From assembly GCF_003334305.1 (NCBI RefSeq), contig NZ_QOWS01000018.1: 64,000 nucleotides of DNA. One strand, given 5' to 3'. The notes under the pieces are model-generated. The model was not told the DNA's origin. It did no database searches and saw nothing but the letters and a program-made list of their open reading frames with translations. This stretch comes from Escherichia coli (lineage in GTDB: Bacteria; Pseudomonadota; Gammaproteobacteria; Enterobacterales; Enterobacteriaceae). Position 1 is the stretch's first letter; every line of letters begins with the position of its first letter. A program made the translations under genes and the position numbers. This document shows positions 4,465 to 37,810 of the stretch, piece after piece.

Positions 4465-6561
4465 TTATTGTCCAACCGGTACTTCTCGCTCTGCCGTCAT
4501 TGGATAGAGCTGGTATTTGCGTGACAGCATTTGTCCACCATCACGCGTCAATGGTGTCCACGAAACCACCGCGCGGTTGCGGTTAGGTCCAATGGTCATC
4601 AAGTCGAATGGAATCGAGATATAAAAACCTTTACTAAAGCCGCCTTCGCCGTAGTCATCTTTAGATACGTTACTGATTGCCGCCCATACCCCTACCGCCA
4701 CGCCGCTGTCAAAGCGTTTGGCGACGTCGATCGTTGCGCCTTTATCTTTTGCCAGATATTGCCCAACGCTAAGTTTCATCAGTACGCCATTGAGCGTCGG
4801 CGGGTTCCAGTAAGCCGTCACGAAACCTGTTGGCGTGGAATAATCGGTGAAACGCATCATGTTGTCCCAGTCACGTTGCTTCACGTAGTTAACGTCCACA
4901 CCCAGCGCCCAGCTGGCATCTAGCGGGCGATAAAGCAGCTCGGAACCGACACCGGCGTACATCGTTTCCAGATAACCGCCATACACCTGGCCATAGAAAC
5001 CATTGCCTAAGTCGGCAAAGTAGTTCGCCTGCAAGTTGTTGAGATAAACGTCATTGCGAACGTAATCACGGATATGCGTGCGCACGCGGGGCAGGGTAGA
5101 GTCCGCGGGCAACAGCGAAGACTTAAACTTGTCGTAGTTGTTGTAAATATTGGTGAAAATACCGCCATCAAGCAGCAGGTGGTCGGTAAACCAGTAGCGG
5201 GCACTGGACATCAGCCCCAGCTGGAACATATAGAAATCTTCCGGGCCGCCCAGCGACTGTGAAAGTGTTGGGTTGAAAGAGTAGCTAAAGCGATCTTCAC
5301 GAATACGGTAGCCCCGACCAAAGGCAGAAAGATCTTCTGCTTCAACACGTTGTTGTTGAAGTTGCTCTGATTGACCAGGCGCTGTACCAGCCAGCTGTTT
5401 GCGCAGGCTGGCTACGTCGGTTTCGGTAGTCACCATCGCCATATGCTCGCGCTTTTGCGTCACGCTAATCTTCTCAACGCCTTGCGGCAGGTTATTCACC
5501 AGAATCCGGTTGGCACGATCGACCGCTTCGCGAGAATCACGGTATTTGTATTGTTGACCAGACATATACAGCGTCTTATCGCGCAGCTGAATTTCCGGTG
5601 CTTCAAAACCTGCGTTGTACTTCAGCGCGGTAAGTTGGTTCGCTACTGTGGTGTACTGCAATCCTTCAGATTCAGGCGCAGGTTGATATGCCGGTTTTGG
5701 CGTATCGCGCAGGGCAGGGCGCAGATCGTTGAAATTGGTCCGTAACGTGAAGCCAAACATCAACGTGTTACCGCGTTCATAACTCAGGTTGAGATCTGCC
5801 CAGCTGGCAGCGCGATAAACTGCGCCGACGTTGAAATGGCTTGCCTGAGGCAGTTTGCCAGCGAAATCATTCTGGTAATTGTTGCCATCGTATTCGAGTT
5901 TCAGACGCAGGGGATTCCACGGCGTTTGATACTCAATGCCGCCAAAGATGGAAGCCGGGCCACGAAAGATATCGCTAAAGCTGATATCGCCCGCATCGTG
6001 AGACTCTGCGCGATGACAATATTTATCGCTCACCCGGCAAAACGGGTTGGTAATATTGCCCGCATTACCGGCGTAGCCCCATGCCATCCCGAGGGTGAAA
6101 TCAAATGGCCCCGCTTGCTTGCTGGCCACCAGATACTCACCGTCAAACAGACCCGTACCAGCAATATCACGTTTACCAAACGCCACTTGCGGTAGCCAGT
6201 AACCTTCTTCCCACAGGCGAAGTTTAAAATCGAATGATTTGTCTTTGTATGACTGATCGCCGCTGAAATCTTCCCACTGGCTATATTTGCGTGTGCGCAC
6301 ATCCGTATAACGAATGGTGCCTTCCAGCCATGGGAACAGCGCCACGGAGGTGGAGTAGAACCGGTATTGATCGTTATCCCGGTAGTTGACGCTGAATTCA
6401 CCTTCCGGTGCGATGCGCGCATTTGGCATCTGCAACAATCCTGTGCCGCCAAAGTCTGATTGCGACGAACCCAGCGGATCCGGGTAGGTTAATACTTCAG
6501 CATGACAGGCACTGGAGACGGCAATGGCCAGGCAGCTTAAAAGATAAGAATTCTTCTTCAT
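4465..6561 (-). CDS. gfcD: Group 4 capsule outer-membrane protein GfcD
   Basis: 698-aa ORF with signal peptide; synteny within the gfc operon. Confidence 0.85.
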
Positions 6562-8801: not shown

Positions 8802-9014
8802 TTAAGAGAGATAAACATTTGCCGCTGTTGGTCCTCGCAGGCCATTTACGCGGCAAAATTCCACACGTAATCCTGGTATAAGCACTTCTGCGTCGCGGGG
8901 AGTGAATGCGGAAATATGGACCTGAACTTCTTTACGACCGTCGGAGGGGATAATGAATCCTTTGCCGCTTTTGCGATCAAAGGTTTTGACAATTCCTGTC
9001 ATTTTACGGGACAA
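8802..9014 (-). CDS. cspH: Cold-shock-like protein CspH
   Basis: 70-aa cold-shock domain protein. Confidence 0.9.
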
Positions 9015-9711: not shown

Positions 9712-9916
9712 TATCAGGCTCCCTCGTGGAGCCTTTTTTATATCTGCCTTATTTTTCTTCAACGCTGTATGTATAGTAAGCGATAACCTGTTGATTATTG
9801 AATCTTTCGGGGAGATGGCTTATAACATTTCTTACCTGACCAGGGTACCGGGAACCAACACCTTACTGGCGTGTTGCTGTCTTTCAAGACCAGAAGAGGT
9901 TAACAGTGAATATTGA
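9686..9916 (+). CDS. ymcE: Small hydrophobic protein, 76 aa (position and length consistent with ymcE/sfa)
   Basis: 76 aa from MRRWISQNN... inside the 87-aa track ORF; assignment is from recalled synteny and length, sequence identity not verified. Confidence 0.45.
   Translation: MRRWISQNNIRLPRGAFFISALFFFNAVCIVSDNLLIIESFGEMAYNISYLTRVPGTNTLLACCCLSRPEEVNSEY
9716..9740 (+). terminator. Intrinsic terminator-like hairpin downstream of cspG
   Basis: ggctcc-ctcgt-ggagcc stem-loop followed by tttttta. Confidence 0.6.
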
Positions 9917-24893: not shown

Positions 24894-25499
24894 TTAGCCG
24901 TTAAGTTTAACTGCCAGACCTGCGACATATTCCCCTTGATAACGAGCAATAGACAGTTCTTCCTGGCTTGGCTGGCGTGAGCCGTCACCGCCTGCGATGG
25001 TTGTTGCGCCGTACGGCGTACCGCCGCGAACCTGTGAAACGTCAAATAATTCCTGCGCTGCGTAGCCAATGGGGACAATTACCATGCCGTGATGCGCAAG
25101 GGTCGTCCAGGTTGAAGTAATAGTTTGTTCCTGACCGCCGCCAGTACCGGTGGAACTAAAGACGCTCGCCAGTTTTCCGTATAGTGCGCCGGAAGCCCAC
25201 AGGCCGCCCGTCTGGTCGAGGAAGGTACGCATTTGACCGGACATGTTGCCAAAGCGGGTAGGTGTACCAAAAATAATGGCGTCGTAATCGGCCAGTTCTT
25301 GCGGGGTTGCAACCGGTGCAGTTTGCGTTTTACCGCCTGCTTTTTCAAATAATTGCGGCGGCATGGTTTCCGGTACACGCTTAACGACAACTTCTGCGCC
25401 ATCCACTTTGCTTGCACCCTCAGCGACTGCGCGTGCCATCGTTTCAATATGTCCGTACATGGAATAATAAAGCACTAGTATTCTTGCCTTAACACTCAT
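24894..25499 (-). CDS. wrbA: NAD(P)H:quinone oxidoreductase WrbA with an element-encoded N-terminus ([12 protein letters not shown] in place of the recalled K-12 MAKVLVLYY)
   Basis: 201-aa flavodoxin-like ORF; the first codons and the RBS (aggaga) lie in the inserted element, the rest is host wrbA. Confidence 0.9.
25469..25475. other. attL core candidate (AAAGCAC), left copy of the junction direct repeat
   Basis: Host wrbA sequence ends and element sequence begins right after this heptamer. Confidence 0.55.
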
Positions 25500-25550
25500 A
25501 TCATTGTTCTCCTGTTCAATGAACCACTTAGATAAGCATAGTCCGAAGAT

Positions 25551-27194
25551 ATGAAGCTGCTAGTGACATACATCAGGTGGAGTACTAAAGAGCAAGACTC
25601 AGGAGACTCCTTAAGACGACAAACAAACCTCATTGATGCTTTCTACTCTAAGCACAAAAACGATTATTACCTTCTTCCTGCTCACAGATACGTTGATAAG
25701 GGTAAATCTGGTTTTCACCAGCAACATAAGAATCAAGGTTCTGACTTCAGACGTATGTTTGAAAATGTTATGTCTGGGGCTATTCCAGAAGGTTCCCTGA
25801 TTGTTGTAGAGAACTTTGACCGCTTCAGTAGGGCTGATATCGACACAGCTATAGATGATGTCAGGCAGATACTGAGGAAGGGAGTCTCTATACTGACTCT
25901 GGGAGATGGTGAACTCTACGACAAGTCAGCATTAACAGACCCTGTGAAGCTGATTAAGCACATCATCATAGCTGAGCGAGCACATCAGGAATCTCTTGTT
26001 AAACAAAAGCGTATAGCTCAGGTCTGGAACCATAAAACACAGCTTGCAAGAGAACTTAAGAAGCCTATGGGTAAGCAAGCCCCCGGATGGTTAGAGCTAT
26101 CAGAAGACGGTTCACACTACATCGTTGATGAAGATAAAGCGTCACTGGTGAATATCATCTATGACAAGCGTCTTTCTGGTATGTCGATGTTTGCTATCTG
26201 CAAATGGCTAAACGAACAAGGTTACCCGACCATTAATCAGCGTAAGGTCAGAATATCCAAGACTAAGAAACCGGATGGTAACTGGTCAGCTTTAAGCGTT
26301 AAACACATCCTGACTTCACGAAGTGTATTAGGTTACCTTCCCGCTAAGATTTCTACAGAAGACCGTAAAACAGTGTTACGTGAAGAAATTGAAGGGTTCT
26401 ATCCTCAGATTGTCACAGATTCTAAGTTTTACGCTGTACAGCAACTGTTAGAGGAAACAGGGAAGGGGAAAACATCCAGCGGTGACCACTGGTTATACGT
26501 GAACATACTGAAGGGGCTTATCCGTTGTAAGTGTGGGCTTGTAATGACTCCTACAGGGATACGTAAACCCGTTTATCAAGGTACTTACCGTTGCAATGGT
26601 AATAAGGAGTCCCGTTGTAGCTACGGTACAGTGTCCAGAAAGTTACTTGATACACAGCTTTGTAGTCGTCTGTTTAGCAAACTGTCACAGCTACACGATG
26701 AAGCTACCGATACAGCTAAATTAGATGAACTACAAAGAAGATTAAACACCGTTGATGGTGAACTGGAAAAACTCACTGAGACGCTGATACAGCTTCCTAA
26801 CATCACTCAGATTCAAGAAGCACTACGGGTTAAACAGGAAGAAAAAGATGAACTGATAGTTCAGTTATCACGAGAAAAGGCGAGGGTAAAATCTGTATCA
26901 AGCTTGGATTTAAGCGGTCTTGATATGGAGTCTGTAGAGGGGAGAACTGAAGCCCAGATTATCATTAAGCGTCTGGTGAAAGAGATTGTTGTTTCTGGTA
27001 ATGAAAAGCTGGTGGATATATATCTTCACAATGGAAATATGATTCGTGGTTTCCCTCTTGATGGTAAAGATGACCACACCTTAACGCTTGAAGAAGCAAC
27101 CGATGAGATGCAGTCACTAGATGATATGCTTATTTTTGGTGAACCAGTAACAAGGATTTATCCTGCTGGTGATATGGAAGAGGTGGACGCTTAG
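25551..27194 (+). CDS. Large serine recombinase (integrase candidate)
   Basis: 547 aa; N-terminal resolvase-type catalytic motif YIRWSTKEQ (catalytic Ser), Cys-rich zinc-ribbon region (CKCG...CNGNKESRC) and coiled-coil segment typical of large serine recombinases; gene abuts the junction. Confidence 0.85.
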
Positions 27195-27979
27195 TATTTT
27201 TTATTAGGGTTCACTGAGTACTTTTTAAGCTTTGAAGCTACTCGACCAGCGTTACTATTAGCATTGGTGACGTTGGTTTTTTCAGCTTCTGTTAAGTCTG
27301 AATAGTCCAGCTTCCAAGCCTTATTACACTTAATCTGAGCATCGAGAATATCATTTCTGATAGCTGGAGCGTAACCGGATACATCGCTAATACTCATTAG
27401 CTCTTTGCACGATAGCATAGGCGCGTTATTGCGTTCAGTGGTCACGTTACCTGCATTCTTCTTACTGGTCACACCACCATCATTCGTAGTCGCGGCTTTT
27501 CCAGTTGCAGCCGAGATATCAGTCTGCCCCACAACAGCTTTGAAGTTAATTTCCTGAAAAGTTAGTTGGATTCTTAATCCGTTTGAAATTCCAACATCTT
27601 TAGAGGCTTTAAAACTTGTGATAATGGAATCATCAATTTTAATTCCGTCTTTACAGATGACAGAAATAATCTGCTTCTGGTCACGCCAGTTTTCCAGAGT
27701 GTCAATGAAGTTCTCTACTAATTGACCCTGACGAGTTAATAGTAAGCTTCCTTCATAACCAACTACAACGACACCACTGATAGTGATTGTTCTGGGTGCT
27801 CTTTGAACATTATCTGTGACGGTTTGCCCTGATTGCATGTTCTGTGTAGTCACCTGCATAGGGCTATCAAATTCCATATTTTCAGTTGCTGATAAGGTTA
27901 AGAAGGCATCTACATTATCTCTTAAGTGGAAGTAAACGCCATCTTTGCCACTGTAGCGGATTTGATTGCTAAAAATCAT
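27191..27979 (-). CDS. Hypothetical protein, possibly distal-tail (Dit)-like phage tail component
   Basis: Follows the tape-measure-like gene in the canonical order; start taken at the second Met (MIFSNQ), which has an AAGGAG RBS; homology not verified. Confidence 0.35.
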
Positions 27980-28059
27980 TAAATTCTCCTTTGATTTCAA
28001 AGGCTTAGTGTATTTTAATCATTTTTAACCAAGCCTTTGATATATAAGTATTTTCTCTG

Positions 28060-28128
28060 TTAAGCGTGAGCTACGTAAATTCTATTTTTCAGTGCGGGTA
28101 TTAACTTTGCTTTATTCACGTAGAACAC
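28060..28128. repeat. Direct repeat copy A (69 bp, internal dyad GCTACGT...ACGTAGC) upstream of the Dit-like gene
   Basis: ttaagcgtgagctacgtaaattctatttttcagtgcgggtattaac... about 88 percent identical to copy B. Confidence 0.75.
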
Positions 28129-28135
28129 CGTTAAA

Positions 28136-30304
28136 TCAATCATCTTCTGGGAATGATGAACTTAATAACGTAGCTTCTGCATATTGGTCGTAGATATTAC
28201 TGCTAAAGGTCATAAAGCTGGTTTCATCTGGTTTAATGGCAACTTCACCACCAAGTGAAACTTTCACAGGCTCCTGAATACGCTTACTTAAAGCAGAGAT
28301 TTCATCCCTCAGACCCTGAATATCTGCACTCGTTAATGCTGAATCTTGCTTAATGTTGTTTAATTCTGGATGATTGAATCTTGCAATATTCATTGTGGCA
28401 TTGTTAAACAATTCACCCATTGAACTAAAAATTCTACTCCATCCTTCGTTAATCACATTCGGTTTATTAGGGTCACCAGAATACACAGGATTAAAGTCAC
28501 TACCCACACCTACCCCAGATGGATGCATATTAGCGTTTTTGACTACTTCCTGATTCATAAAATCCAGTGCTTTCTTCAATGCATATAAACCAAGAGTGAC
28601 ACCTCTGATTTGTGGAATCATTGAAGCTAATGCTAACGCTGTTTCATAACCGTCATCAGCATAACCAATTGCAAGAGCACTACCTACACCACCAGCTACA
28701 CCTTTCAGTTTTCCACCACCTTTACCAGTAGCTACCTGACCAGCCACCTGATTAGCTCTTGTACCTAACGTTGTGATTGCTCTTGTCAGGTTCATAACCC
28801 CTGTAGTAGCACTGAATAGTGTCTTTGCAGATAACGCTATAGCAAGACCTTTGACGAAGTTGATAAATCCATCACCGACTTCATCAAGTAGCTTTCGCTT
28901 AGTGTCATCAAGGCTGTAATAGGTCTTCTTAATCTGTAGAATCCAGCCTTCAAGGTGATTGTTAAAGATACGGATGTCATCTACACCAGCTTTAAGCATG
29001 TCGATAAGTCCACCGATAGCATCACCAGCGATAGAAGAACTCATACCCATTTCACTAAGCAGGTTACTCAGGCTGGATAAGAAGCCATTTAGCTCATCCT
29101 GTGAACCTGAGAAGATTTTCACCATCGTATCATCCCAGTTGTTAGCCAGTTTCCCTAAAGCTGTCTGAGTGCTCTTAGCGACTTCAGCCCAGCCACCCGC
29201 TTTATCAATCATCAAGCCCATCTGTTTAGCGACTTTAGGGAGAGTATCACTACTTAAAATCTTCCCGTCTTTCATCGCTTTATCAAGCTCTGTAGCAGTC
29301 ATACCCAGTGCTTCAGCGAATAGCTTAAATGCACCAGCCATACGGTCACCTAACTGACCACGAAGCTCTTCAGCCTGAATCTTGCCCTTGCTCGCCATCT
29401 GCTCAAATGCTTTCAAAATGCCGTTTAGCTCATCGTTAGAAAGCCCCATTAAGCGACTCATAGCCGTTGCATTACCAAATAGCTCCTGTGTCTGTTCCTG
29501 TGACATAGAACCCTGAGCACCTGCTGCAAACTTAGCGTAGCTTGATAGCCCTTCAGAGATATTAAGACCTGTCTTGTCTGCTAAATTTCGAATAAATACC
29601 TCAGCTTCAGATGCTTTATCACCAAGTACAAACTTAGCGGCTCTCTGTGCGGAATCTCGTTTAAGACCTGCATTCATGATGGCCTTGTAAGCGTTAAGAG
29701 CACCCATCACAGAGTAAAATGCACCAGATAACTTGATTGCATTGCTTGCAAGATTATTAAATGCGTCGCTTGTATTGTTAATGCTGGTGGATGTATGACC
29801 TTTAGCTTTAGCAATTGCTTCTCTGACTGAAGCATTTAACTGAGTCAGCTTCTCATTGAATTTTGAAGAATCCATTGACCCAGCTTTAGCAGATAGCCCG
29901 TAAAACTGAGATTTGATGTATTTCTGCAAAATAGGGTCAAAGCCTTTTAGCTTAGACATATTAGCTGAGTAAGCCGCTGTGATTGCTCTGTTGCCGCTAA
30001 TTCGTGGCTGTCTTGGTTGTCTAAGTGGCTTTAAAGTGTCATCAATTTCCGTTTTAATCTTAAACGCTCTAGTGTTTTTAAGACGCTGCTCAATCTTGGA
30101 AACAGTTTTATCGACATTCTTTTCCATTAGTTTGAGAGAATCATTTAAAGGCGTAGGGTTAACTCTGAATGCCTTATTTAGTCGTTTCTCAATTCTTGAT
30201 GCGATTTGCATCGTTTGTTTCTCGGCTTTTTCCAAGCCTTTTAAAACTTTCTGAGAGCTAAAACTTAGCTCAATCAAAAAATCATCAACTTTAAATTGTG
30301 CCAT
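28136..30304 (-). CDS. Tape-measure-like protein (phage tail length tape measure family candidate)
   Basis: 722 aa; coiled-coil N-terminus, central region resembling the tape-measure core (...AEELRGQLGDRMAGAFKLFAEALGMTATELDKAMKDG...), Gly-rich hydrophobic segments. Confidence 0.55.
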   Translation of the reverse strand: MAQFKVDDFLIELSFSSQKVLKGLEKAEKQTMQIASRIEKRLNKAFRVNPTPLNDSLKLMEKNVDKTVSKIEQRLKNTRAFKIKTEIDDTLKPLRQPRQPRISGNRAITAAYSANMSKLKGFDPILQKYIKSQFYGLSAKAGSMDSSKFNEKLTQLNASVREAIAKAKGHTSTSINNTSDAFNNLASNAIKLSGAFYSVMGALNAYKAIMNAGLKRDSAQRAAKFVLGDKASEAEVFIRNLADKTGLNISEGLSSYAKFAAGAQGSMSQEQTQELFGNATAMSRLMGLSNDELNGILKAFEQMASKGKIQAEELRGQLGDRMAGAFKLFAEALGMTATELDKAMKDGKILSSDTLPKVAKQMGLMIDKAGGWAEVAKSTQTALGKLANNWDDTMVKIFSGSQDELNGFLSSLSNLLSEMGMSSSIAGDAIGGLIDMLKAGVDDIRIFNNHLEGWILQIKKTYYSLDDTKRKLLDEVGDGFINFVKGLAIALSAKTLFSATTGVMNLTRAITTLGTRANQVAGQVATGKGGGKLKGVAGGVGSALAIGYADDGYETALALASMIPQIRGVTLGLYALKKALDFMNQEVVKNANMHPSGVGVGSDFNPVYSGDPNKPNVINEGWSRIFSSMGELFNNATMNIARFNHPELNNIKQDSALTSADIQGLRDEISALSKRIQEPVKVSLGGEVAIKPDETSFMTFSSNIYDQYAEATLLSSSFPEDD

Positions 30305-30322
30305 TGTTCATATTTCACCTCT

Positions 30323-30390
30323 TTAAGCGTGAGCTACGTAAATTCTATTTTTCAGTGTGGGTATTAGCTTTACAGATTTCACGTAGCACA
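30323..30390. repeat. Direct repeat copy B upstream of the tape-measure-like gene
   Basis: ttaagcgtgagctacgtaaattctatttttcagtgtgggtattagc...cacgtagcacac. Confidence 0.75.
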
Positions 30391-30505
30391 CATAGGATTC
30401 GATAGAAGACTATCTCATATACAAAAAAGGAGAGTTACCGATGTCACTCGATAATCTCTCCCGTAGATTTTTACCCAACCAATTCTATTAGAAGCTAATC
30501 TCAAA

Positions 30506-30721
30506 TTAATGGTAAACGTAAGAATACATCCCATCATCACCTAAAATCTGTGCGTCACATGGTAATTTATCTAAGCACCATGAAGGAATCTTACGTACCT
30601 TTGGTTTATGTGAGGTGATAACTTGATGCTGATTTTTAATTCGTAGCTTTGGTTTAGTCTGAAGCTTTAAGTTCTCACAAACAGACTTAATAAGTTCATA
30701 GCGTTCTGTTAAATCAATCAT
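30506..30721 (-). CDS. Hypothetical small basic protein
   Basis: 71-aa ORF co-oriented with neighbouring element genes; no recognisable motif. Confidence 0.4.
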   Translation of the reverse strand: MIDLTERYELIKSVCENLKLQTKPKLRIKNQHQVITSHKPKVRKIPSWCLDKLPCDAQILGDDGMYSYVYH

Positions 30722-30744
30722 TCACCACCTCTTTTAATTCATAG

Positions 30745-31455
30745 TTAAAGTGCCTTGCTATATTTCTGAGAAATCTTCACTAACTGCTCAATATCAGCCT
30801 GCATAGCAATCTTCTTCTGCGTTTCATATGCAGAAATAAGCTCTTTCATAGCCTGAAGCTCTCTTGAGAGATACAACTTAACATTTTCAAGTTGCTTGTT
30901 ACGTGATGCCAAGATGTTCTGTCTGGCAAGTTCAGCGAGTTCTTCATCGCTCTTATTAGTCGTGTAAATAAACTGACCAGCACCCCTTGAAGCTTTAACC
31001 ATCTTCACAATTCGATATCCAGCAGGAAGACTACTAATCACGGCTGCGACGTTTTCTTGAAAAGTACCAAAACCATCATTGTCTTCGTATGTGAAGTAAA
31101 CATACGGCTTCTGTGACAATTCATCCTGAATCTCAAATTCTGACGGCTCAATAGCTGATTGCATCAGGGTAACTTTACTGTAAGCATCATCTAGTTTAAT
31201 ACGCTGTGCTTTTAGCAGTGGGTAATATTCACGCTCAAGCTCAAGTAATGCTTCAGTTTTGCATACATCAGGCATCTCTTGAGGCTCAGGAGACACAAAG
31301 ATGATTTCCTTTGGTGACATTCGGATTTCTTGCTCAAGCTTAATTCTTTCATCGTGTTCTTTACGCTGAATAGCGATAGCTGGATGTTCAGTCTGTGGCG
31401 ACCAGTCACCGAAGCTATCAATCACTTTGCCATTAATGTAAATATCATTTGTCAT
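30745..31455 (-). CDS. Hypothetical protein with C-terminal coiled coil
   Basis: 236-aa ORF with a good RBS (aagagga); no recognisable domain. Confidence 0.5.
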   Translation of the reverse strand: MTNDIYINGKVIDSFGDWSPQTEHPAIAIQRKEHDERIKLEQEIRMSPKEIIFVSPEPQEMPDVCKTEALLELEREYYPLLKAQRIKLDDAYSKVTLMQSAIEPSEFEIQDELSQKPYVYFTYEDNDGFGTFQENVAAVISSLPAGYRIVKMVKASRGAGQFIYTTNKSDEELAELARQNILASRNKQLENVKLYLSRELQAMKELISAYETQKKIAMQADIEQLVKISQKYSKAL

Positions 31456-31933
31456 TGTTTTTTCCTCTTCTAAGCTAAAGTATTTCAGTTTTTAAAAAGC
31501 ACACCTGACAGCCTATCTAAACTTAGAAGAGACTTAAAAGGCGGTTTGCCAAGTATGCTTTTTAAAAGCTGAAAAAGCCCTAGATAACTAAAACGCTATA
31601 AAGGGCTAAGGTGAAGAAATTAAAACATCTAAAGGATTCAATAACGAATGAACAAAGACTTTTCGAGATAGCCTCTCAGGTTGTATAAGAGGCCATGTAG
31701 CGAAAAGCATTGCACCTTTCAGAATGTTCGGTATAGAACATACCTCACCAACTCAGAATATCCATCCATCGGATTATTGAAATAAATAAGAGAGAAATTC
31801 TCTCTATAATTAAAATTATGTCATGCTTAAGGTTATTTGTCAACAGCTTTTTAACAGATTGGTAACATTTATACTTTAATAGATGCACCTGCAATCATAC
31901 CAATCAACACAAAACAGAGAATCACCAATTCCA

Positions 31934-32257
31934 TTAATGCACCACCTTCGAATCCGTAACCAGAATATTATCGCTGTACAAAATTGCTATAGCCGCCTTG
32001 AGATATTTTTCAGGGCTAACGCTGTATTTGTTCGTTTGCTCGACAACCAATCTTTTCATGTTGCTGTCTTTAATTGGTAGCATCATTCGAGGCTCGTTAA
32101 ACTCCACCGACTGAATAAAGTCAGAGATGCTTTCCGCATTATCAGTCATTAACTCTAACAACTTATCAAAGTCAATGCTAACACCTACATCAGTGAAAGC
32201 CTGAATCATCATGGCGGTGTCGGTATCAATAAAAATCTGTAATTCGTAATTGTTCAT
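31934..32257 (-). CDS. Hypothetical acidic protein
   Basis: Start taken at the ATG (MNNYELQIF) preceded by AAGGAG; the track ORF begins at an upstream TTG. Confidence 0.45.
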   Translation of the reverse strand: MNNYELQIFIDTDTAMMIQAFTDVGVSIDFDKLLELMTDNAESISDFIQSVEFNEPRMMLPIKDSNMKRLVVEQTNKYSVSPEKYLKAAIAILYSDNILVTDSKVVH

Positions 32258-32412
32258 TTTTAAAATCTCCTTTTTACCAGACCTCCTCAATCGCTCTGTA
32301 ACGAGCTAAACAGTCTTTTTCAGGGGTAGCCTGTACAGTGGTATTACCCACCCTAAAATAAGATAGTTTTTTGCGTCAGAATGCGATTGAGAGCGTCTGA
32401 GAAGCTGTTTTT

Positions 32413-32700
32413 CTAATTTCTCTTAAAGTCTCGGACTTGCATAAGATTTTTTGGTCTGGTATCGGCTCTGTTACCATTTCGATGGATAATTTGCTTGTTG
32501 GATTGATAGCCATGATAAAGAAACCAGACAACATATTTCACGTAGAAAGTATATCGGCCTATATTAAATGTTTTGTTGCCGTAGTCGTCGGTGTTTATCG
32601 TGACTGACTCTCCATCAGACCAGCACAGGGAATCACTGGATTCATCATAGATAAGGTGTTCTGCAAAATATCTTCTAACATCTTCATTCCAAGGTTTCAT
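32413..32700 (-). CDS. HNH endonuclease-like protein
   Basis: 95 aa; C-terminal IIHRNGNRADTRPKNL resembles the HNH core (I-H-x-N/D-G-N-x-x-D-N-R-x-x-N-L) of phage HNH nucleases. Confidence 0.5.
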   Translation of the reverse strand: MKPWNEDVRRYFAEHLIYDESSDSLCWSDGESVTINTDDYGNKTFNIGRYTFYVKYVVWFLYHGYQSNKQIIHRNGNRADTRPKNLMQVRDFKRN

Positions 32701-32912
32701 AAAACCTCCTCACCCCAATAACCTAATTCAATCTTGTGACGCTCAAACCATTCCGGTTTAACTGCTGTTTTCAGTACTTCATTTGGGCCAATGGCTTTAA
32801 TGAAAATATCTTTTGAGTTATGGATGTCACCGAATCCGTTTCCTTCAATCAGGAGGTCGGAGATGTAGCGAATCATTTTATCCGTGTGGTATTCAAAGGT
32901 AACGCATAGCAT
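32697..32912 (-). CDS. Hypothetical protein
   Basis: 71-aa ORF with start/stop overlap to both neighbours (operon-like coupling). Confidence 0.4.
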   Translation of the reverse strand: MLCVTFEYHTDKMIRYISDLLIEGNGFGDIHNSKDIFIKAIGPNEVLKTAVKPEWFERHKIELGYWGEEVL

Positions 32913-33193
32913 TAAACCTCCAGAGACAGCTTGTGAATCTTAAGACTCAATAGACGGGCAATATCAATTTTAAAGCCGTTAAGTCCCTTCAAAGTATCTA
33001 AAGCGTCCTGAGTAATTCGGATGTGTTTACGACCTTTAGAGACTGGATATTTAAGTAAATCCGACTCAGTAACCTCTTTAGCAATTGCAAGCTGCATAAC
33101 AGTCTGATGAGGTAAGTTAGTAGCTCGTTTAATTCTGGCAAGCTCGTTAAAAGCTTCCTCTGAAATGCGGGTTAAAGTGTGTTTGTTTTTCAT
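32912..33193 (-). CDS. Putative ribbon-helix-helix DNA-binding protein
   Basis: N-terminal HTLTRISEEAFNELARIKRATNL pattern (beta-strand then helix) typical of Arc/MetJ/CopG-type regulators. Confidence 0.4.
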   Translation of the reverse strand: MKNKHTLTRISEEAFNELARIKRATNLPHQTVMQLAIAKEVTESDLLKYPVSKGRKHIRITQDALDTLKGLNGFKIDIARLLSLKIHKLSLEV

Positions 33194-33194
33194 T

Positions 33195-33749
33195 TTAAAA
33201 TTCCTCTGTAACTAAATACGGGTCAAATTCAAAGTCTGGTTCACTGGTTGTAAGGCTGATATTTCCAACTTCCGCATGATGATTAATTGTCTCAATAACT
33301 TTCATGCAAATAGTGGCTAAGTTAGCGCAATATTTATCACTTGGTAATTCGTAGCTAAGTCTGGTTGCTTGTCTTTGAAGATGGCTCGTCACTGTGCTTG
33401 AACTAATCTCATCAAGACTTCGCAGTAAATAAAAAACCTTCCGGTGATAATTATCTCTTCCAAGACTGCGACAAGTACCGATAATTACATCTTCAATTCG
33501 TGGCGGTAATTGCTCGTAAGAATCAAAGCCCATCAAGAAAGTTTTTAAAGTATTCTCTTTTTCTTTGCGTGCTGGCATAAATCTGTCTCGTGGCGTAATG
33601 CTACGAATGACCGCTTCAATGTTCTTACGTTCGGATTTGCTAAAGGTTGGGACTTCGTAGCTGGTGGGGGTGTCTGTGTGGCTGTAACCGTTGTGTCTGT
33701 TGCGTTCTCTTGATGCCTGAAGCATCGCTCTAAATTCTCTGTCGTTCAT
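33195..33749 (-). CDS. Hypothetical protein (first gene of the leftward operon)
   Basis: 184-aa ORF with no recognisable domain. Confidence 0.45.
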   Translation of the reverse strand: MNDREFRAMLQASRERNRHNGYSHTDTPTSYEVPTFSKSERKNIEAVIRSITPRDRFMPARKEKENTLKTFLMGFDSYEQLPPRIEDVIIGTCRSLGRDNYHRKVFYLLRSLDEISSSTVTSHLQRQATRLSYELPSDKYCANLATICMKVIETINHHAEVGNISLTTSEPDFEFDPYLVTEEF

Positions 33750-33850
33750 TCATAAGCTAGTCCTTATAATTGTTAATTCTCTGTTAACTTATATATACAA
33801 TACTAGCATTTTCAAAGACTAATGTCAAGCATTTTTTAACATTTCATTAA

Positions 33851-33866
33851 CATCTGTGGTATAATG
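33851..33866 (+). promoter_or_regulatory. Candidate extended -10 promoter (TGgTATAAT), rightward
   Basis: ctgTGgTATAATgg in the divergent region between the 184-aa gene and the small membrane ORF. Confidence 0.45.
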
Positions 33867-33992
33867 GTTCTATGGGGAGAGTAAAATATAAAGGCGTGGC
33901 TATGAGGTTTATTCGATAGGGGTTGGTACAAGCCCAACCAACCGAATCAACTATGTATGTCACATGGTATTGCATTGCACACAGGAAATTTA

Positions 33993-34169
33993 ATGGTAAA
34001 TCTCCCTCCTGAACTGGGGTCACCTGATGTATGGGCTGGTGGAGGTATCGGGCTGATTGCAGGTCTGTTACTCCGCTACGTCCTTGTCAGAGTGCTTGTT
34101 GTGTTCCGATTGTTCGGTCGTACATGGACGCTTGACCTTAAGGATAATGAGCACACAGAACCCCGTTAA
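33993..34169 (+). CDS. Small single-pass membrane protein (58 aa from the RBS-preceded ATG)
   Basis: Hydrophobic stretch GGGIGLIAGLLLRYVLVRVLVVF; AGGAAA RBS before the MVNLPPEL start. Confidence 0.35.
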   Translation: MVNLPPELGSPDVWAGGGIGLIAGLLLRYVLVRVLVVFRLFGRTWTLDLKDNEHTEPR

Positions 34170-34211
34170 GCTCCCTTCAAATCCCCCTGTACGAGATGGC
34201 ATAGGGGTGTC

Positions 34212-34250
34212 TTTAGCATTTTGTGCTATCTATTAAAAAATAACTTGACA
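34212..34250. promoter_or_regulatory. Operator-like dyad TAGCA-N5-TGCTA followed by ACTTGACA (module 1)
   Basis: tttagcattttgtgcta ... acttgacagaa. Confidence 0.45.
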
Positions 34251-34289
34251 GAACCGGAAAGCTGTATCTATCAGGTATTCACCTCTCTG

Positions 34290-34460
34290 ACAGTAACTTC
34301 TAAAAGTTCTTATTTTTCAATGAGTTGTAATCACCCATATATAGAGAACTGACAAGTCTCTTCACAATTAACTCTGTAACCTTAACAGTGATTTCTAAAA
34401 ATGCTTATTTTTCAATAAGTTGTAATTAGCCATATATAGAGAACTGACAAGTCTCTTCAC
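34290..34460. repeat. Two tandem copies of a 76-bp direct repeat (period 95 bp) in ORF-free DNA
   Basis: acagtaacttctaaaagttcttatttttcaatgagttgtaatcacccatatatagagaactgacaagtctcttcac versus the second copy, about 88 percent identical. Confidence 0.8.
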
Positions 34461-34777
34461 GGAGAACTTCCTGGACTCACTAAGATACAAGGCGATAACC
34501 CCAGAAAGGGAGAGCCACCTTCTAATTGGTATTGTTATGAGGATGCTTCATCCGAATCATCTACCAATCCCTAAACCGACTTCTTAAACAATCTTTACAG
34601 ACCCCGTTCACCAGTCTCAATATTTTTATTTCTCGCTCTTCGTTTGTTGCTCGTTTCTATTATTGAGGGGGTTTGAAAAACCTCTGTAAAATAACCCTTC
34701 CAGTAAAAAGCGAATAACCCCAGAGAGGGGGAATCGCCTCTTTAACATTCTCATAATCAGTGCTCTATATGAGAATT

Positions 34778-35446
34778 TCAGCCCAACCTTTGAACAATCT
34801 TGTAAGTGGTGCTTAGAGGCATTCTTAGCGATTCTGCGATGCTCTTGACGGATTGCCCTTGGCCATGCAGTTTAATCAGCCTGTCAAGCGTCTGTGCATC
34901 GTGTATATGAGGTCTTCCACGTAAACCACCCCTGTTAACCACGGCAAGTAAAAGCATTGTGTCGCCACAATAGATTGTTTGTGTAACTTCAACCTTCGGT
35001 TTACGGGGTGTGTTCCTGTATATCAAAACGCAACTTGCAAACGGTGAACGCACTACAACACCTTTCTTCCCTGCTGGTGGAAGGTATTTGACTGCTCGGT
35101 GTAACGTTCGAATCTCATGCAGAAAGGGGTTTGTATATACACACCGAAGCCAGTAAGTTGTCTTTGACCTGTGCGGAACCAGACATACACACACATCAGC
35201 TTCATGGGATTTTAGGAGGAACCTTTCAGCCATGCTAAACGGCGGGTTAACGAAGACCCGTTCACCAACCCATGATTGATTGTGAATATCATCGGTGAAC
35301 CGTGGCAACAATGCGTCATGCTCAGTTGCAGCACCATCCATCGAAAAACCAAATTCACGGTGTAGGTTACGAAATAAACGATACGGTGTACGCCAGTCAT
35401 CAGAACCACCATGATAACGACCGACATTGATTATTGGATGTGACAC
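34778..35446 (-). CDS. Dam-family (phage-type) DNA N6-adenine methyltransferase with a C-terminal HTH extension; GTG start
   Basis: N-terminal DWRTP and catalytic NPPF motifs of the phage Dam family; C-terminal about 45 aa (GRPHIHDAQTLDRLIKLHGQGQSVKSIAESLRMPLSTTYKIVQRLG) resemble the GRP-linker plus HTH of resolvase/invertase proteins. Confidence 0.7.
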   Translation of the reverse strand: MSHPIINVGRYHGGSDDWRTPYRLFRNLHREFGFSMDGAATEHDALLPRFTDDIHNQSWVGERVFVNPPFSMAERFLLKSHEADVCVCLVPHRSKTTYWLRCVYTNPFLHEIRTLHRAVKYLPPAGKKGVVVRSPFASCVLIYRNTPRKPKVEVTQTIYCGDTMLLLAVVNRGGLRGRPHIHDAQTLDRLIKLHGQGQSVKSIAESLRMPLSTTYKIVQRLG

Positions 35447-35485
35447 AAGCGAAGCGCCCCTCTTAGTATATTTCTTAATCGTCTC

Positions 35486-35546
35486 TTTAGCATTTAGTGC
35501 TTTTTGTTAAGTTTAGCACTTTTTGCTAAAGACAAAACACTTGACA
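35486..35546. promoter_or_regulatory. Operator-like dyads (TTTAGCA-N6-TGCTAAA and a second half-degenerate copy) followed by ACTTGACA (module 2), upstream of the methyltransferase gene
   Basis: tttagcatttagtgct and tttagcactttttgctaaa, then acttgacaaaa. Confidence 0.5.
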
Positions 35547-36020
35547 AAATGGTAAGATTGTTCACATGACCTTACTTAACAGATTCTTAAGAGCTTTGAA
35601 ACGAACTGTTTAACAAGGTCACTACCTCTGGTCTTATCGTTCCCTCTCTTCTTGGTAGTTCTGTTAAGTATCTTTTCAGGTATCTCTTACAGTCACTGTT
35701 AAGATAGAACCTACCTTCGGTTTCATGGTTCTCTTCCTCCCGTTAAATATCCCTTCACAGTCAGACTAAATAACACCTCTGTAGTTTCTTGGTAGAATCT
35801 TTCAAGGTAACTTAACTCTGAGTTTATGAAGTTGACCTTAGTCAATGTTTGTGAAGGTGTTACAGAGCATGTTCTCTAGGTCTGTGTAGCTCACTAAGCG
35901 AGAGAGGGGATATGTGACCATAGGGGAACCCCTCCTGTTAAAAGTTTCTTGATGTTATCATCACAATATGTATAATCACCAACTGTACAGACACCTTAAC
36001 GGTTTCTCTACACCTCACTA

Positions 36021-36089
36021 TGGCTAGGTAGGGTATGGTTTAGCTTGGTACGGCTAGGTTAGGTCTGGTTTGGTTAGGTATGGGTGGAT
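36021..36089. repeat. Degenerate G/T-rich short tandem repeat (GGYTAGGT-like units)
   Basis: tggctaggtagggtatggtttagcttggtacggctaggttaggtctggtttggttaggtatgggtgg. Confidence 0.6.
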
Positions 36090-36120
36090 TGTCGTAGCCA
36101 CGTTAAAAATCGACTTATAG

Positions 36121-36145
36121 GGACTCTTTCGGGAGTCCTTTTTAG
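36121..36145 (+). terminator. Intrinsic terminator, plus orientation, with no upstream plus-strand ORF
   Basis: ggactc-tttcgg-gagtcc stem-loop followed by ttttt. Confidence 0.6.
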
Positions 36146-36347
36146 TTTGTATAAAATCTGTACAGGAGTTATCAGGCTTCTAAAATTTTTATAAAAAATA
36201 ATCAGACCTCTTCTAAGCCTCTTCAACCAAATCTTTCGAAAATATCTGACAGATGTCTGTAGCTGCTAAGTACCCGTCACACCAGCTATGTGACCCCCTT
36301 GGCAAAAAAGCCAAATATCAGCTACATCCATGTAACTATTCAGTAAC

Positions 36348-36899
36348 TTATTTAGCAAGTCTGTAATAAGTTGCTCTAGAGATTCCTAACTCTTCCTGAA
36401 TCTGCAACCTCGTCTTACCTTGTGAAATAAGCGTCTGTACAGCCTCTGAAGAAGCCTTTACAGGCCTCCCCATATGTACCCCTTCAGCTTTAGCACGTTC
36501 AATACCAGCCTTTCTACGCTCTGCTATCAAGCTTCTTTCAAGCTGTGCCAACGTTGACATAATGCCTAACATTGCTTCACCCATAGCGCTTGATAAGTCA
36601 AACCCTTCTCTAAGGCTGATAACTGTCACACCTTTAGCCTGTAGCGCTTTAACCGTTGATAACACATCAATTGTGTCACGTCCAAGACGGTCTACAGCTA
36701 CCACAACTACGGTGTCACCTTCTCGTGCATAAGCTAACAAACTACTGAAACCGTTTCTTAAAGAAGCTTTGACAGAACCACTGACAGCTTCATCAGTGAA
36801 CCATTTAGCAATGTTGTACCCTGCCTCTTCAATTTGCATTTGCTGGTTAGTGATGGATTGGTCATCTGTACTCACCCTGCAATATCCAAGTATCGCCAT
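36348..36899 (-). CDS. Small serine recombinase (resolvase/DNA-invertase family)
   Basis: 183 aa; N-terminal catalytic motif GYCRVSTDDQ, resolvase core, C-terminal GRP linker plus HTH. Confidence 0.85.
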   Translation of the reverse strand: MAILGYCRVSTDDQSITNQQMQIEEAGYNIAKWFTDEAVSGSVKASLRNGFSSLLAYAREGDTVVVVAVDRLGRDTIDVLSTVKALQAKGVTVISLREGFDLSSAMGEAMLGIMSTLAQLERSLIAERRKAGIERAKAEGVHMGRPVKASSEAVQTLISQGKTRLQIQEELGISRATYYRLAK

Positions 36900-36912
36900 A
36901 CATCCCCCTTAG

Positions 36913-37040
36913 AAGTCTCAAAAGTTAGTCTCATAAGTTTAGCTGTCTCATAATCCAAAAACAACCTTTTGAGACTACTTGAGGGTGCATTCTACCGTTA
37001 CGTTGAAAGTGTCTCAAAAGGAAGTCCTTTTAAGACTGGT
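36913..37040. promoter_or_regulatory. Iteron-like array of GTCTCAWAAG motifs (at least four direct, two inverted) immediately upstream of the small recombinase gene
   Basis: gtctcaaaag, gtctcataag, gtctcataat, inverted ttttgagact, gtctcaaaag, taagact within about 125 bp. Confidence 0.6.
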
Positions 37041-37416
37041 TATGAAGGAGCTATGAAGATTTTAGGAGGGTAACTATAACCATCACTTTCTAACTTTCAC
37101 GTAGGAAATCGTTAAGTTTCTTGATAGTTACACCATGTGACCAACTATCTATATATCGTTATATAGCCCTGTATATAACACTTTTCTAGGAGTCGAGAGA
37201 GGGACGACTAACACGATACAGTTTACCCTGAAAAGAGACTTCACAGATTCTCTATATATTTCAATAAGTTAGGCTAAAAAGAGACTATACCGATACTGTA
37301 TAGAATCTGTGTAGAATTGCTTAGATACTTGGAAAAATGCCTTTAAATTGAATAGGTACTAACCTGTTTATGTCCTGTTATTAACAGGTAGTTGAATGTA
37401 CGTGTTTAGCTATGTA

Positions 37417-37438
37417 AAAGCACCAGAACTTTAGCCAT
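37417..37438 (-). other. attR core candidate (AAAGCAC) plus the displaced native wrbA start codon and first five codons
   Basis: Minus strand reads ATG GCT AAA GTT CTG GTG C..., the recalled native wrbA 5' end, now separated from the gene body by the element. Confidence 0.6.
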
Positions 37439-37810
37439 TTCTAACCACTCCTCGTGTTATCTCTATTCCGTAGCGATTCGCTACCACTTATTTAAAGATA
37501 AGACGTCCTTTTCAGAGTGCAAATTTCACAACCACTTATTTGATTTATAACAACTTTCACAAGCACGTAATTTTGTCGCAAAATGACACATTTTTATCTC
37601 ATCGCGTTTTTTTAATCATAAGAGCGGCTTATGGATAATTATTGGAGATGATATCTATTCTCGCTAAGAAGCTGTTGCAGGATATTACCAAACGCGGGTC
37701 TGCCCGCGTCAGTTCACTAAGCTTAGTCCCACGTAGCGAAAATATGGCAGCCGCCATACGCCGCGTTAATTCTATGCAATATGATGTCTATACCCAGACG
37801 GAGGTCAGTA

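Follow-up and report, generated by a model that had tools for sequence, protein, structure and literature searches.

A repeated 69-bp element before two tail genes of an Escherichia coli mobile island, read as a possible promoter/operator module and recombination linker

The PLEs of Vibrio cholerae parasitize the virulent myovirus ICP1 as satellites and integrate via a large serine recombinase; they encode a tape measure protein (TMP), a tail assembly chaperone and a baseplate hub of their own, which share 19-41% identity with those of the phage, and these proteins build chimeric tails from which the phage TMP is excluded (PMC11838301). Tail take-over from virulent phages by a satellite has so far been shown only for the Vibrio PLEs (PMC11838301). 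A TMP has also been reported for the EPIP satellites of Mycolicibacterium. With regard to the expression of satellite genes, the late promoters Psid and PLL of P4 are activated by P2 Ogr or P4 Delta; with regard to gene exchange, the modular theory of lambdoid phages describes conserved boundary or linker sequences between exchangeable modules. In this work, we analysed a window of 64,000 nucleotides (nt) from the chromosome of Escherichia coli strain A7 (assembly GCF_003334305.1, contig NZ_QOWS01000018.1), for which a preliminary description had pointed out near-identical 69-bp direct repeats bracketing a tape-measure-like gene. We characterize this 69-bp element, the mobile island carrying it and its variation among related islands, and we present a reading to which we give about an even chance of being correct, namely that the element is a co-regulated promoter/operator module doubling as a recombination linker.

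A repeat search of the window recovered the pair as one two-copy family of 69 nt each (copies A and B, Table 1), 88% identical, with the leading 35 nt of the plus strand shared exactly. This 35-mer, allowing up to 3 mismatches, matched at just two sites of the window, with 0 expected from 100 shuffles; the existence of the pair, at the identity of about 88% claimed beforehand, is confirmed and lies well above chance. The placement of the copies 5' of a Dit-like and a tape-measure-like gene was likewise correct, both genes being encoded on the minus strand: copy B ends 18 nt from the TMP start codon (30304), and copy A is placed between the TMP stop (28136) and the start of the tail tube initiator gene (27979). 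The two gene assignments were upheld, that of the TMP by PHROG 4036 and PDB chain 9ndy_F, and that of the Dit-like protein by PF21821 and 9ndy_A, a chain labelled 'tube initiator protein gp018'. As for the GCTACGT...ACGTAGC arms ascribed to both copies, they are present in copy B, whereas the second arm of copy A reads ACGTAGA. Overall, the boxes of the element, CTACGTGA and T(T/C)ACGTAG, are inverted relative to each other and separated by 45 bp from centre to centre; a TAnnnT hexamer abuts the second of them, and a short conserved leader comes thereafter; the box sequence may also be given as CTACGTGAAA or CTACGTRA.

The comparison of the element covered 46 related loci, taken from genomes of E. 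coli, from E. albertii, from IMG/VR and from metagenomes. In a profile search of these loci, a maximum of two strong copies per island was found, always in the order B-TMP-A-tube initiator; the model fit gives a span of exactly 69 nt for 72 of the 73 copies, and two of the 73 carry a 27-nt insertion after box 1. The repeats were found in all related elements, so that the preliminary description, which their absence from relatives was to count against, stands in this respect. Between islands, element identity reaches 79-84%, versus 44-68% in neighbouring 69-nt windows. A gapless alignment of 35 distinct versions (alignment A1), with a mean column identity of 85%, contains invariant columns that correspond to CTACG (6-10), T45 and A46, T50 and T51, ACGTA (53-57) and TTAA (66-69). 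In one variant family, direct reading of the sequences places the block ATACCCAC 2 nt farther from box 1 and 2 nt nearer the hexamer; these offsetting indels, with the total length held, indicate a fixed DNA geometry. Since the element is more conserved than its flanks, and than the divergence of the TMP and tube initiator, the sequence comparison indicates purifying constraint on it.

We propose that the 69-bp element would be an activator- or repressor-controlled promoter together with its operator, and that the island would have placed a separate copy before each of two phage-derived tail genes, those of the TMP and the tube initiator. In gene-strand order, the module would comprise box 1, a variable interior, the -10-like TAnnnT, the inverted box 2, the leader CTCACGCTTAA and a ribosome-binding site (RBS), with transcription starting in or just past box 2, and with firing dependent on a box-recognising factor that would be either island-encoded or supplied at phage infection. 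A third, inverted and diverged copy beside the small serine recombinase gene (copy C) would be subject to the same control. Finally, the near-constant element would act as a homology patch, where general recombination would reassort the TMP and tube-initiator alleles.

Several lines of evidence argue for this proposal. Columns 45-50 read TAGAAT, TATTTT, TAGATT or, in copy C, TAACTT, with T45, A46 and T50 invariant in the 35 versions; they thus show the A at position 2, the T at position 6 and the nearness to TATAAT that characterize a sigma-70 -10 hexamer, whose most informative positions are the three that do not vary here. In the Felixounavirus phage wV8, the TMP gene and gene 74, the homologue of the tube-initiator gene, abut without a spacer and the chaperone genes precede the TMP; as the homologous genes abut there, the element was added before each gene in the island. 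Moreover, the intrinsic terminator lying just upstream of copy B implies that the TMP gene needs either a fresh start or regulated read-through, and its sequence (GGGAGAG...CTCTCC-TTTTTTG) recurs in other sampled islands reaching that region. A start 6-8 nt past the hexamer would fall in box 2 and would leave the TMP and the tube-initiator allele termed 'MFDTKQ', where the element adjoins the RBS, with leaders of about 24-32 nt. The earlier suggestion of duplicated late promoters or leader RNAs giving coordinated expression thus fared unequally: the promoter form is favored by the lack of a spacer in wV8, the terminator, the fixed 69 nt and TAnnnT, while the absence of covariation above background and of Rfam matches speaks against the leader-RNA form. 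Hence an expression signal is likely, and in the promoter rather than the leader-RNA form; from these features we infer promoter activity, a start site and a box-binding regulator.

There are also points that weigh against the promoter/operator proposal. No -35 was recognised, as columns 21-27 vary (AAGCTA, GAACAG, AAGTTA) and are unlike TTGACA, and a consensus promoter scan called no minus-strand promoter in copy A or B; without a -35, firing would need a factor, for which the two boxes would be the obvious targets. The TAnnnT reading involves three of the 26 invariant columns and could be a coincidence. No regulator was found, the small proteins of the island being without family match. The 27-nt insertion variant, which in one locus (L007) occurs before an intact TMP gene, indicates that the box spacing is not absolutely fixed, and some recombination breakpoints fall inside genes, so the element is not the sole recombination anchor. 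In addition, CTACGTRA occurs in wV8 only inside coding regions, and a late-gene activator encoded by a helper phage is therefore not indicated; since wV8 does not use the boxes as a regulatory motif, the regulator would more likely be encoded by the island or the host.

Other identities for the element and its factor were considered and discarded. The 71-aa protein encoded upstream of the TMP gene was rejected as an Ogr-like factor, as it is without the four cysteines. Promoters of the sigma-32, sigma-28, sigma-54, T4 late (TATAAATA) and T4 MotA-box types were compared by eye, and none fits across the variants. The element is not an intrinsic terminator either, as at least 31 nt separate its arms and the sequence after them, CUCACGCUUAA, has no U run, the true terminator being a separate structure (30422-30462); the possibility that the repeats were simple terminators shared by unrelated genes, also raised at the outset as an objection, is thereby set aside. 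Separately, the adenine methyltransferase of the island (34778-35446) was seen to bear a C-terminal helix-turn-helix tail, resolvase-like by eye; the corresponding position of locus L005 is occupied by a different helix-turn-helix protein, and an AP2/ERF-type factor is encoded nearby in locus L003. These three are candidate box-binding regulators.

Copy C is the diverged member of the group. Its 3' half, TAACTTTCACGTAGGAAATCGTTAAG (37082-37116), which includes TAACTT and the box, is kept in 12 islands, and its box 1 is degenerate in this window, with the full 69-nt form being present in some islands. Read on the minus strand, a sigma-70-like site (GTGAAA-16-TATAGT, 37100-37073) faces the recombinase gene, and its -35 is overlapped by the box of copy C, an arrangement that fits a common operator. 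Copy C is itself directed toward the right end of the island, 316 nt off, and the integrase gene starts close inside the left end, so that in a circular form of the island copy C would read toward the integrase gene. The 27-nt insertion mentioned above, TGATTCGGATAAGAATTATCCTCATGA, is itself a small hairpin and was found right after box 1 in four contexts, i.e., in copy B of two islands (the L007 case included) and in copy C of two others; its presence in both copy B and the inverted copy C indicates sequence transfer between oppositely oriented copies. Directly 5' of the small serine recombinase gene (36905-37045), several GTCTCAAAAG / CTTTTGAGAC motifs occur in direct and inverted orientation, which resemble a res-type binding region for the small recombinase. 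Downstream of copy C on the plus strand (37117-37230), a stretch conserved in 12 islands contains a GTTATATA-N6-TATATAAC hairpin with ACTTTTCT after it; the stretch could represent a small RNA or leader, and the fold of the RNA 3' of copy C was no better than that of shuffled sequences (z-score -1.1).

The passive linker, the RNA leader and the recombinase site are weaker rivals of the promoter/operator module. For the leader, to which we attach a low probability, the arms would pair in the mRNA before the RBS and serve as a stabiliser, processing site or protein handle coordinating both genes. The minus-strand RNA of copy B indeed folds at -21.2 kcal/mol (z-score -2.7) and the antisense folds poorly, the single variable pair of the core stem alternates between G-U and G-C, which is tolerated on the sense strand only, and the 27-nt insertion would be a small hairpin positioned in the loop. 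Nevertheless, 77.5% of the cells of the 18-pair stem are paired, compared to 76.3% in column shuffles, and both-side changes number 3 against 2.9 expected; RNAalifold retained just 7 invariant pairs (-4.2 kcal/mol, covariation term -0.14 kcal/mol), ACGTACAACAC variants break outer stem pairs without compensation, and copy A folds at shuffle level (z-score -0.7). Furthermore, with a terminator directly upstream the element may not be transcribed from upstream, the interior of copy C is oriented opposite relative to its neighbour gene, and a permissive Rfam search of the island gave no match overlapping either copy up to an E-value of 1. An exact length of 69 nt with a conserved interior is not expected of a hairpin loop, and together with the invariant boxes it fits a DNA-level site better. 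As the main explanation, an RNA hairpin was consequently rejected on the pair counts and on RNAalifold.

The remaining two rivals concern recombination. It had been suggested that the repeats allow the 2.2-kb gene between them to be deleted or exchanged as a cassette, and these two possibilities had different outcomes. An artificial junction joining the upstream gene, terminator, element and tube-initiator gene, used as query for TMP deletion, was absent from 5,426 complete E. coli genomes: 461 matched it in parts, none at 80% or more in one place. In the 29 sampled islands with both copies scorable, the distance between the copies is about 2.2 kb, and a tape-measure gene stands between them wherever the genes of an island were inspected; deletion was thus seen in neither set. 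Exchange, on the contrary, is supported by allele reassortment with breakpoints near the elements. Among 27 islands, the alleles of the TMP, tube initiator and upstream gene assort independently, with discordant pairs such as 100% identity in the 71-aa protein and 44% in the TMP, 99% in the tube initiator and 75% in the TMP, or 97% in the TMP and 74% in the tube initiator. In sliding comparisons, the change in identity falls on copy B, on copy A, or as much as about 150 nt inside a neighbouring gene; the element interior is a mosaic of a few blocks, and copies A and B of one island are as similar (78%) as copies from different islands (79%). Since the breakpoints are not at one fixed position, the exchange is probably homologous and not site-specific, and the sequence pattern is that expected of homologous recombination at conserved linkers. 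We consider it very improbable that the copies are sites at which a serine recombinase of the island excises, inverts or swaps the TMP cassette, even though two direct copies bracket one gene, an inverted third lies beside the small recombinase gene, cassettes are exchanged among islands, and inverted boxes spaced at about 45 bp recall the outer arms of the attachment sites that large serine recombinases use. Apart from the missing deletion product, no inversion was seen among the loci reaching both ends, and breakpoints are scattered inside and outside the element with no single crossover point. As a site for the small recombinase the element was rejected, that gene being preceded by its own res-like GTCTCAAAAG repeats, unrelated to the boxes; as an integrase attachment site it was rejected because the true island ends look different. 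A passive linker, in which recombination spreads a few versions of a boundary sequence of a mosaic element without any regulatory role, appears improbable but somewhat less so: it agrees with the mosaic interior, the versions common to positions A and B and across islands, and the nearby breakpoints. Recombination alone, however, does not explain the exact length despite offsetting indels, the column invariance in all versions including the diverged copy C, or the presence of one copy before each gene when the phage has none; besides, for a homology patch to persist while the flanks drop to 44-68%, some selective constraint is needed.

Table 1. Coordinates of the island, its tail genes and the element copies in the 64,000-nt window; the last row refers to positions in related loci.
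Feature	Coordinates	Strand	Description	Basis
Mobile island	25479..37416	.	11.9 kb, low G+C, in 5' end of wrbA	Ends from comparison with island-free genomes
Large serine recombinase, presumed integrase	25551..27194	+	547 aa; start 72 bp inside island left end	PHROG 95 integrase, E 5e-78
Tail tube initiator gene (Dit-like)	27191..27979	-	262 aa; homologue of wV8 gene 74	Pfam Dit_like PF21821, E 4e-20; PDB 9ndy_A, E 3e-114
13-bp hairpin, tube-initiator leader	27997..28040	-	Downstream of copy A	Inverted repeat; fold z-score -4.8
Element copy A	28060..28128	-	69 nt, between TMP stop and tube-initiator gene	Repeat search, nhmmer, alignment
Copy A box 2	28078-28071	-		
Copy A -10-like TAGAAT	28084-28079	-		
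Copy A box 1	28123-28116	-		
TMP gene	28136..30304	-	722 aa	PHROG 4036, E 8e-90; PDB 9ndy_F (gp017), E 2e-70
Element copy B	30323..30391	-	69 nt, adjoins TMP gene on its 5' side	Repeat search, alignment A1, nhmmer in 46 loci
Copy B box 2 TTACGTAG	30341-30334	-	Followed by CTCACGCTTAA, RBS AGAGGTG and start codon	
Copy B -10-like TAGAAT	30347-30342	-	Candidate hexamer	
Copy B box 1 CTACGTGA	30386-30379	-	First in gene-strand order	
Intrinsic terminator	30422..30462	-	14-bp stem and U6, 3' of 71-aa gene, ~30 nt upstream of copy B	Fold -19.7 kcal/mol
Element copy C (third, diverged)	36993..37116	+	Inverted relative to A and B, 5' of small serine recombinase gene	
27-nt insertion TGATTCGGATAAGAATTATCCTCATGA	L004 ~8975-9002; L007 ~4570-4600; L028 ~9840-9866; L038 ~950-984			

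The two tail genes differ in variability, the TMP being the most variable gene among the islands (median protein identity of 51%) and the tube initiators showing a median of 77%. The hairpin in the tube-initiator leader is missing in islands with the alternative 'MFDTKQ' allele. Close to the TMP start, an out-of-frame ATG located 8 nt 5' of it (30304-30311) has a better spacing to the RBS AGAGGTG and opens a 6-codon mini-ORF, MNNGTI, which overlaps the TMP start; this ATG is kept in most alleles but not in all, locus L014 having ATA.

The element is carried by an island inserted within the first codons of wrbA (25479-25499), a gene known as an integration site of Stx phages. The island provides a replacement N-terminus for wrbA (new start MSVKARI...), and the native start ATGGCTAAAGTTCTGGTGCTTT remains at the right junction (37417-37440). 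Its genes are ordered as large serine recombinase, tube initiator, TMP, a 71-aa and a 236-aa protein, several small proteins, an HNH nuclease, the adenine methyltransferase and the small serine recombinase. Among the open reading frames of the island there are no capsid, portal, terminase, sheath or tube genes, the TMP and the tube initiator being the only structural ones. The proteins of 71, 93, 107, 184 and 236 aa gave no family match in PHROGs, PADLOC and NCBIfam, and Pfam was also empty for the three of these five that were scanned there; PADLOC recognised no known defence system in the island, the only hits being to an orphan methyltransferase model (E 7e-9) and two more at E ~0.007. The same gene order was found at two further sites, the DUF72-family gene beside yecD and yciI/tonB, and also in E. 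albertii, which was the only other species returned by a strict-pattern scan of the genome collection. Of the 5,426 complete E. coli genomes, 474 match the TMP region. Given its own recombinase, the same gene order at several sites and this frequency among genomes, the island is a discrete mobile element and not prophage debris. The long intergenic stretch that separates the 184-aa gene from that of the methyltransferase contains a 76-nt tandem-like direct repeat (34290-34365 and 34385-34460, 91% identical, spacing of 95 nt), which could represent iterons or a repeated control region of another kind.

Among phages, both tail genes have their nearest relatives in Felixounavirus (Felix O1, wV8). 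The island TMP aligns over its full length with the Felixounavirus TMPs at only 29-32% amino acid identity, while the tube initiator is 75% identical to wV8 gp74 and contains a 519-nt patch (27446-27964) that is 93% identical to wV8 gene 74 at the nucleotide level; this contrast between the patch and the TMP, whose protein is only about 30% identical to any phage TMP, suggests that genes have recently passed between the island and a virulent phage. Conversely, the element gave no BLAST match in 50,697 phage records, and its best nhmmer E-value against the whole wV8 genome was 0.78. With these searches empty, and with the DR repeats and late-region intergenic sequences of wV8 unrelated to it by eye, a phage origin of the element was rejected. 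Elsewhere in the island, a non-coding stretch of 82 nt between the methyltransferase and small recombinase genes (36033-36114) displays GGT-phased repeats of about 10 bp and shares 77% identity with an ACC-phased, likewise non-coding repeat region of wV8 (60704-60780) beside DR_4. This similarity recurs in four other islands reaching that region, and the stretch could imitate an origin, a packaging site or a regulatory site of the phage.

When the element is set beside described regulatory and boundary sequences, partial likenesses emerge. The repeats DR_1 to DR_9 of wV8 are also 40-80 bp long and stand directly 5' of successive genes, with hairpins and an RBS in the DRs, but they have no sequence similarity to the element in the search above and are located in the early region, not at the tail genes. 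The late promoters of P4, similarly to the element, are repeated, lack a good -35 and bear a conserved dyad, and they serve the coordinated, factor-dependent expression of satellite genes acting on helper morphogenesis, to which the role proposed here is likened. Nonetheless, the sequences are unrelated, no Ogr-like zinc-finger protein was found in the island, and the P2/P4 dyad TGT-N12-ACA lies upstream, centred near -55, whereas in the element two boxes 45 bp apart bracket the presumed -10. With the linkers of mosaic phages the element shares its character of short, conserved non-coding sequence at gene borders, with divergent alleles flanking it and joints at or near it; it differs from them in presenting the same sequence at both borders of one gene under a tight constraint on length and position, which indicates a function beyond providing homology.

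With respect to the whole island, the closest likeness is to the PLEs. Like them, it is a compact island in the chromosome that bears a large serine recombinase and is without capsid or terminase genes, and both encode their own TMP and a hub-proximal baseplate gene as distant homologues of genes from a virulent myovirus (19-41% identity in PLEs; 29-32% for the TMP and 75% for the tube initiator of the island). Host and phage differ, the island being found in E. coli and E. albertii and linked to Felixounavirus, and no sequence relationship to PLE genes is detectable. The island also departs from the PLEs in having no recognised tail assembly chaperone, in carrying a tube initiator as second gene instead of the BhuB hub, and in the repeated 69-bp element before each tail gene, which is not described for PLEs in the passages searched. 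The island is thus an integrative element with its own integrase at several sites, with few homologues of helper morphogenesis genes and no genes for an autonomous virion, and we infer for it a satellite lifestyle; on this sequence basis, it is a candidate for a new satellite family, PLE-like but not a member of the PLE family. The 82-nt stretch and the 519-nt patch resembling wV8 are at most indirect hints that its induction, replication and packaging would depend on a helper phage. Our literature search found no published description of an E. coli or Felix O1 satellite of this kind.

A bolder proposal, which we regard as possible but rather doubtful, is that the island would be the first E. 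coli counterpart of the PLEs: a satellite of Felix O1-type phages, present in about 9% of complete genomes, which would swap in its own TMP and tube initiator for chimeric tails, with the elements being promoters that respond to infection, switching the two genes on together, and fixed joints for swapping each gene independently as a cassette, the opponent in this arms race being either the phage or a host defence directed at TMPs. If so, the element would show the timing with which stolen tail genes are expressed, and its two-box sequence could be used for a regulator search and for infection reporters; likewise, a constant regulatory spacer on each side would be a simple way to keep a hypervariable gene exchangeable. 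Felix O1-type phages are used in typing and therapy, and a common island acting against their tails would have consequences for the host range of the phages and for therapy outcome. The element itself is a variation on known kinds of features, and its interest comes mainly from its context, a common and undescribed E. coli island that appears to target Felix O1-type tails.

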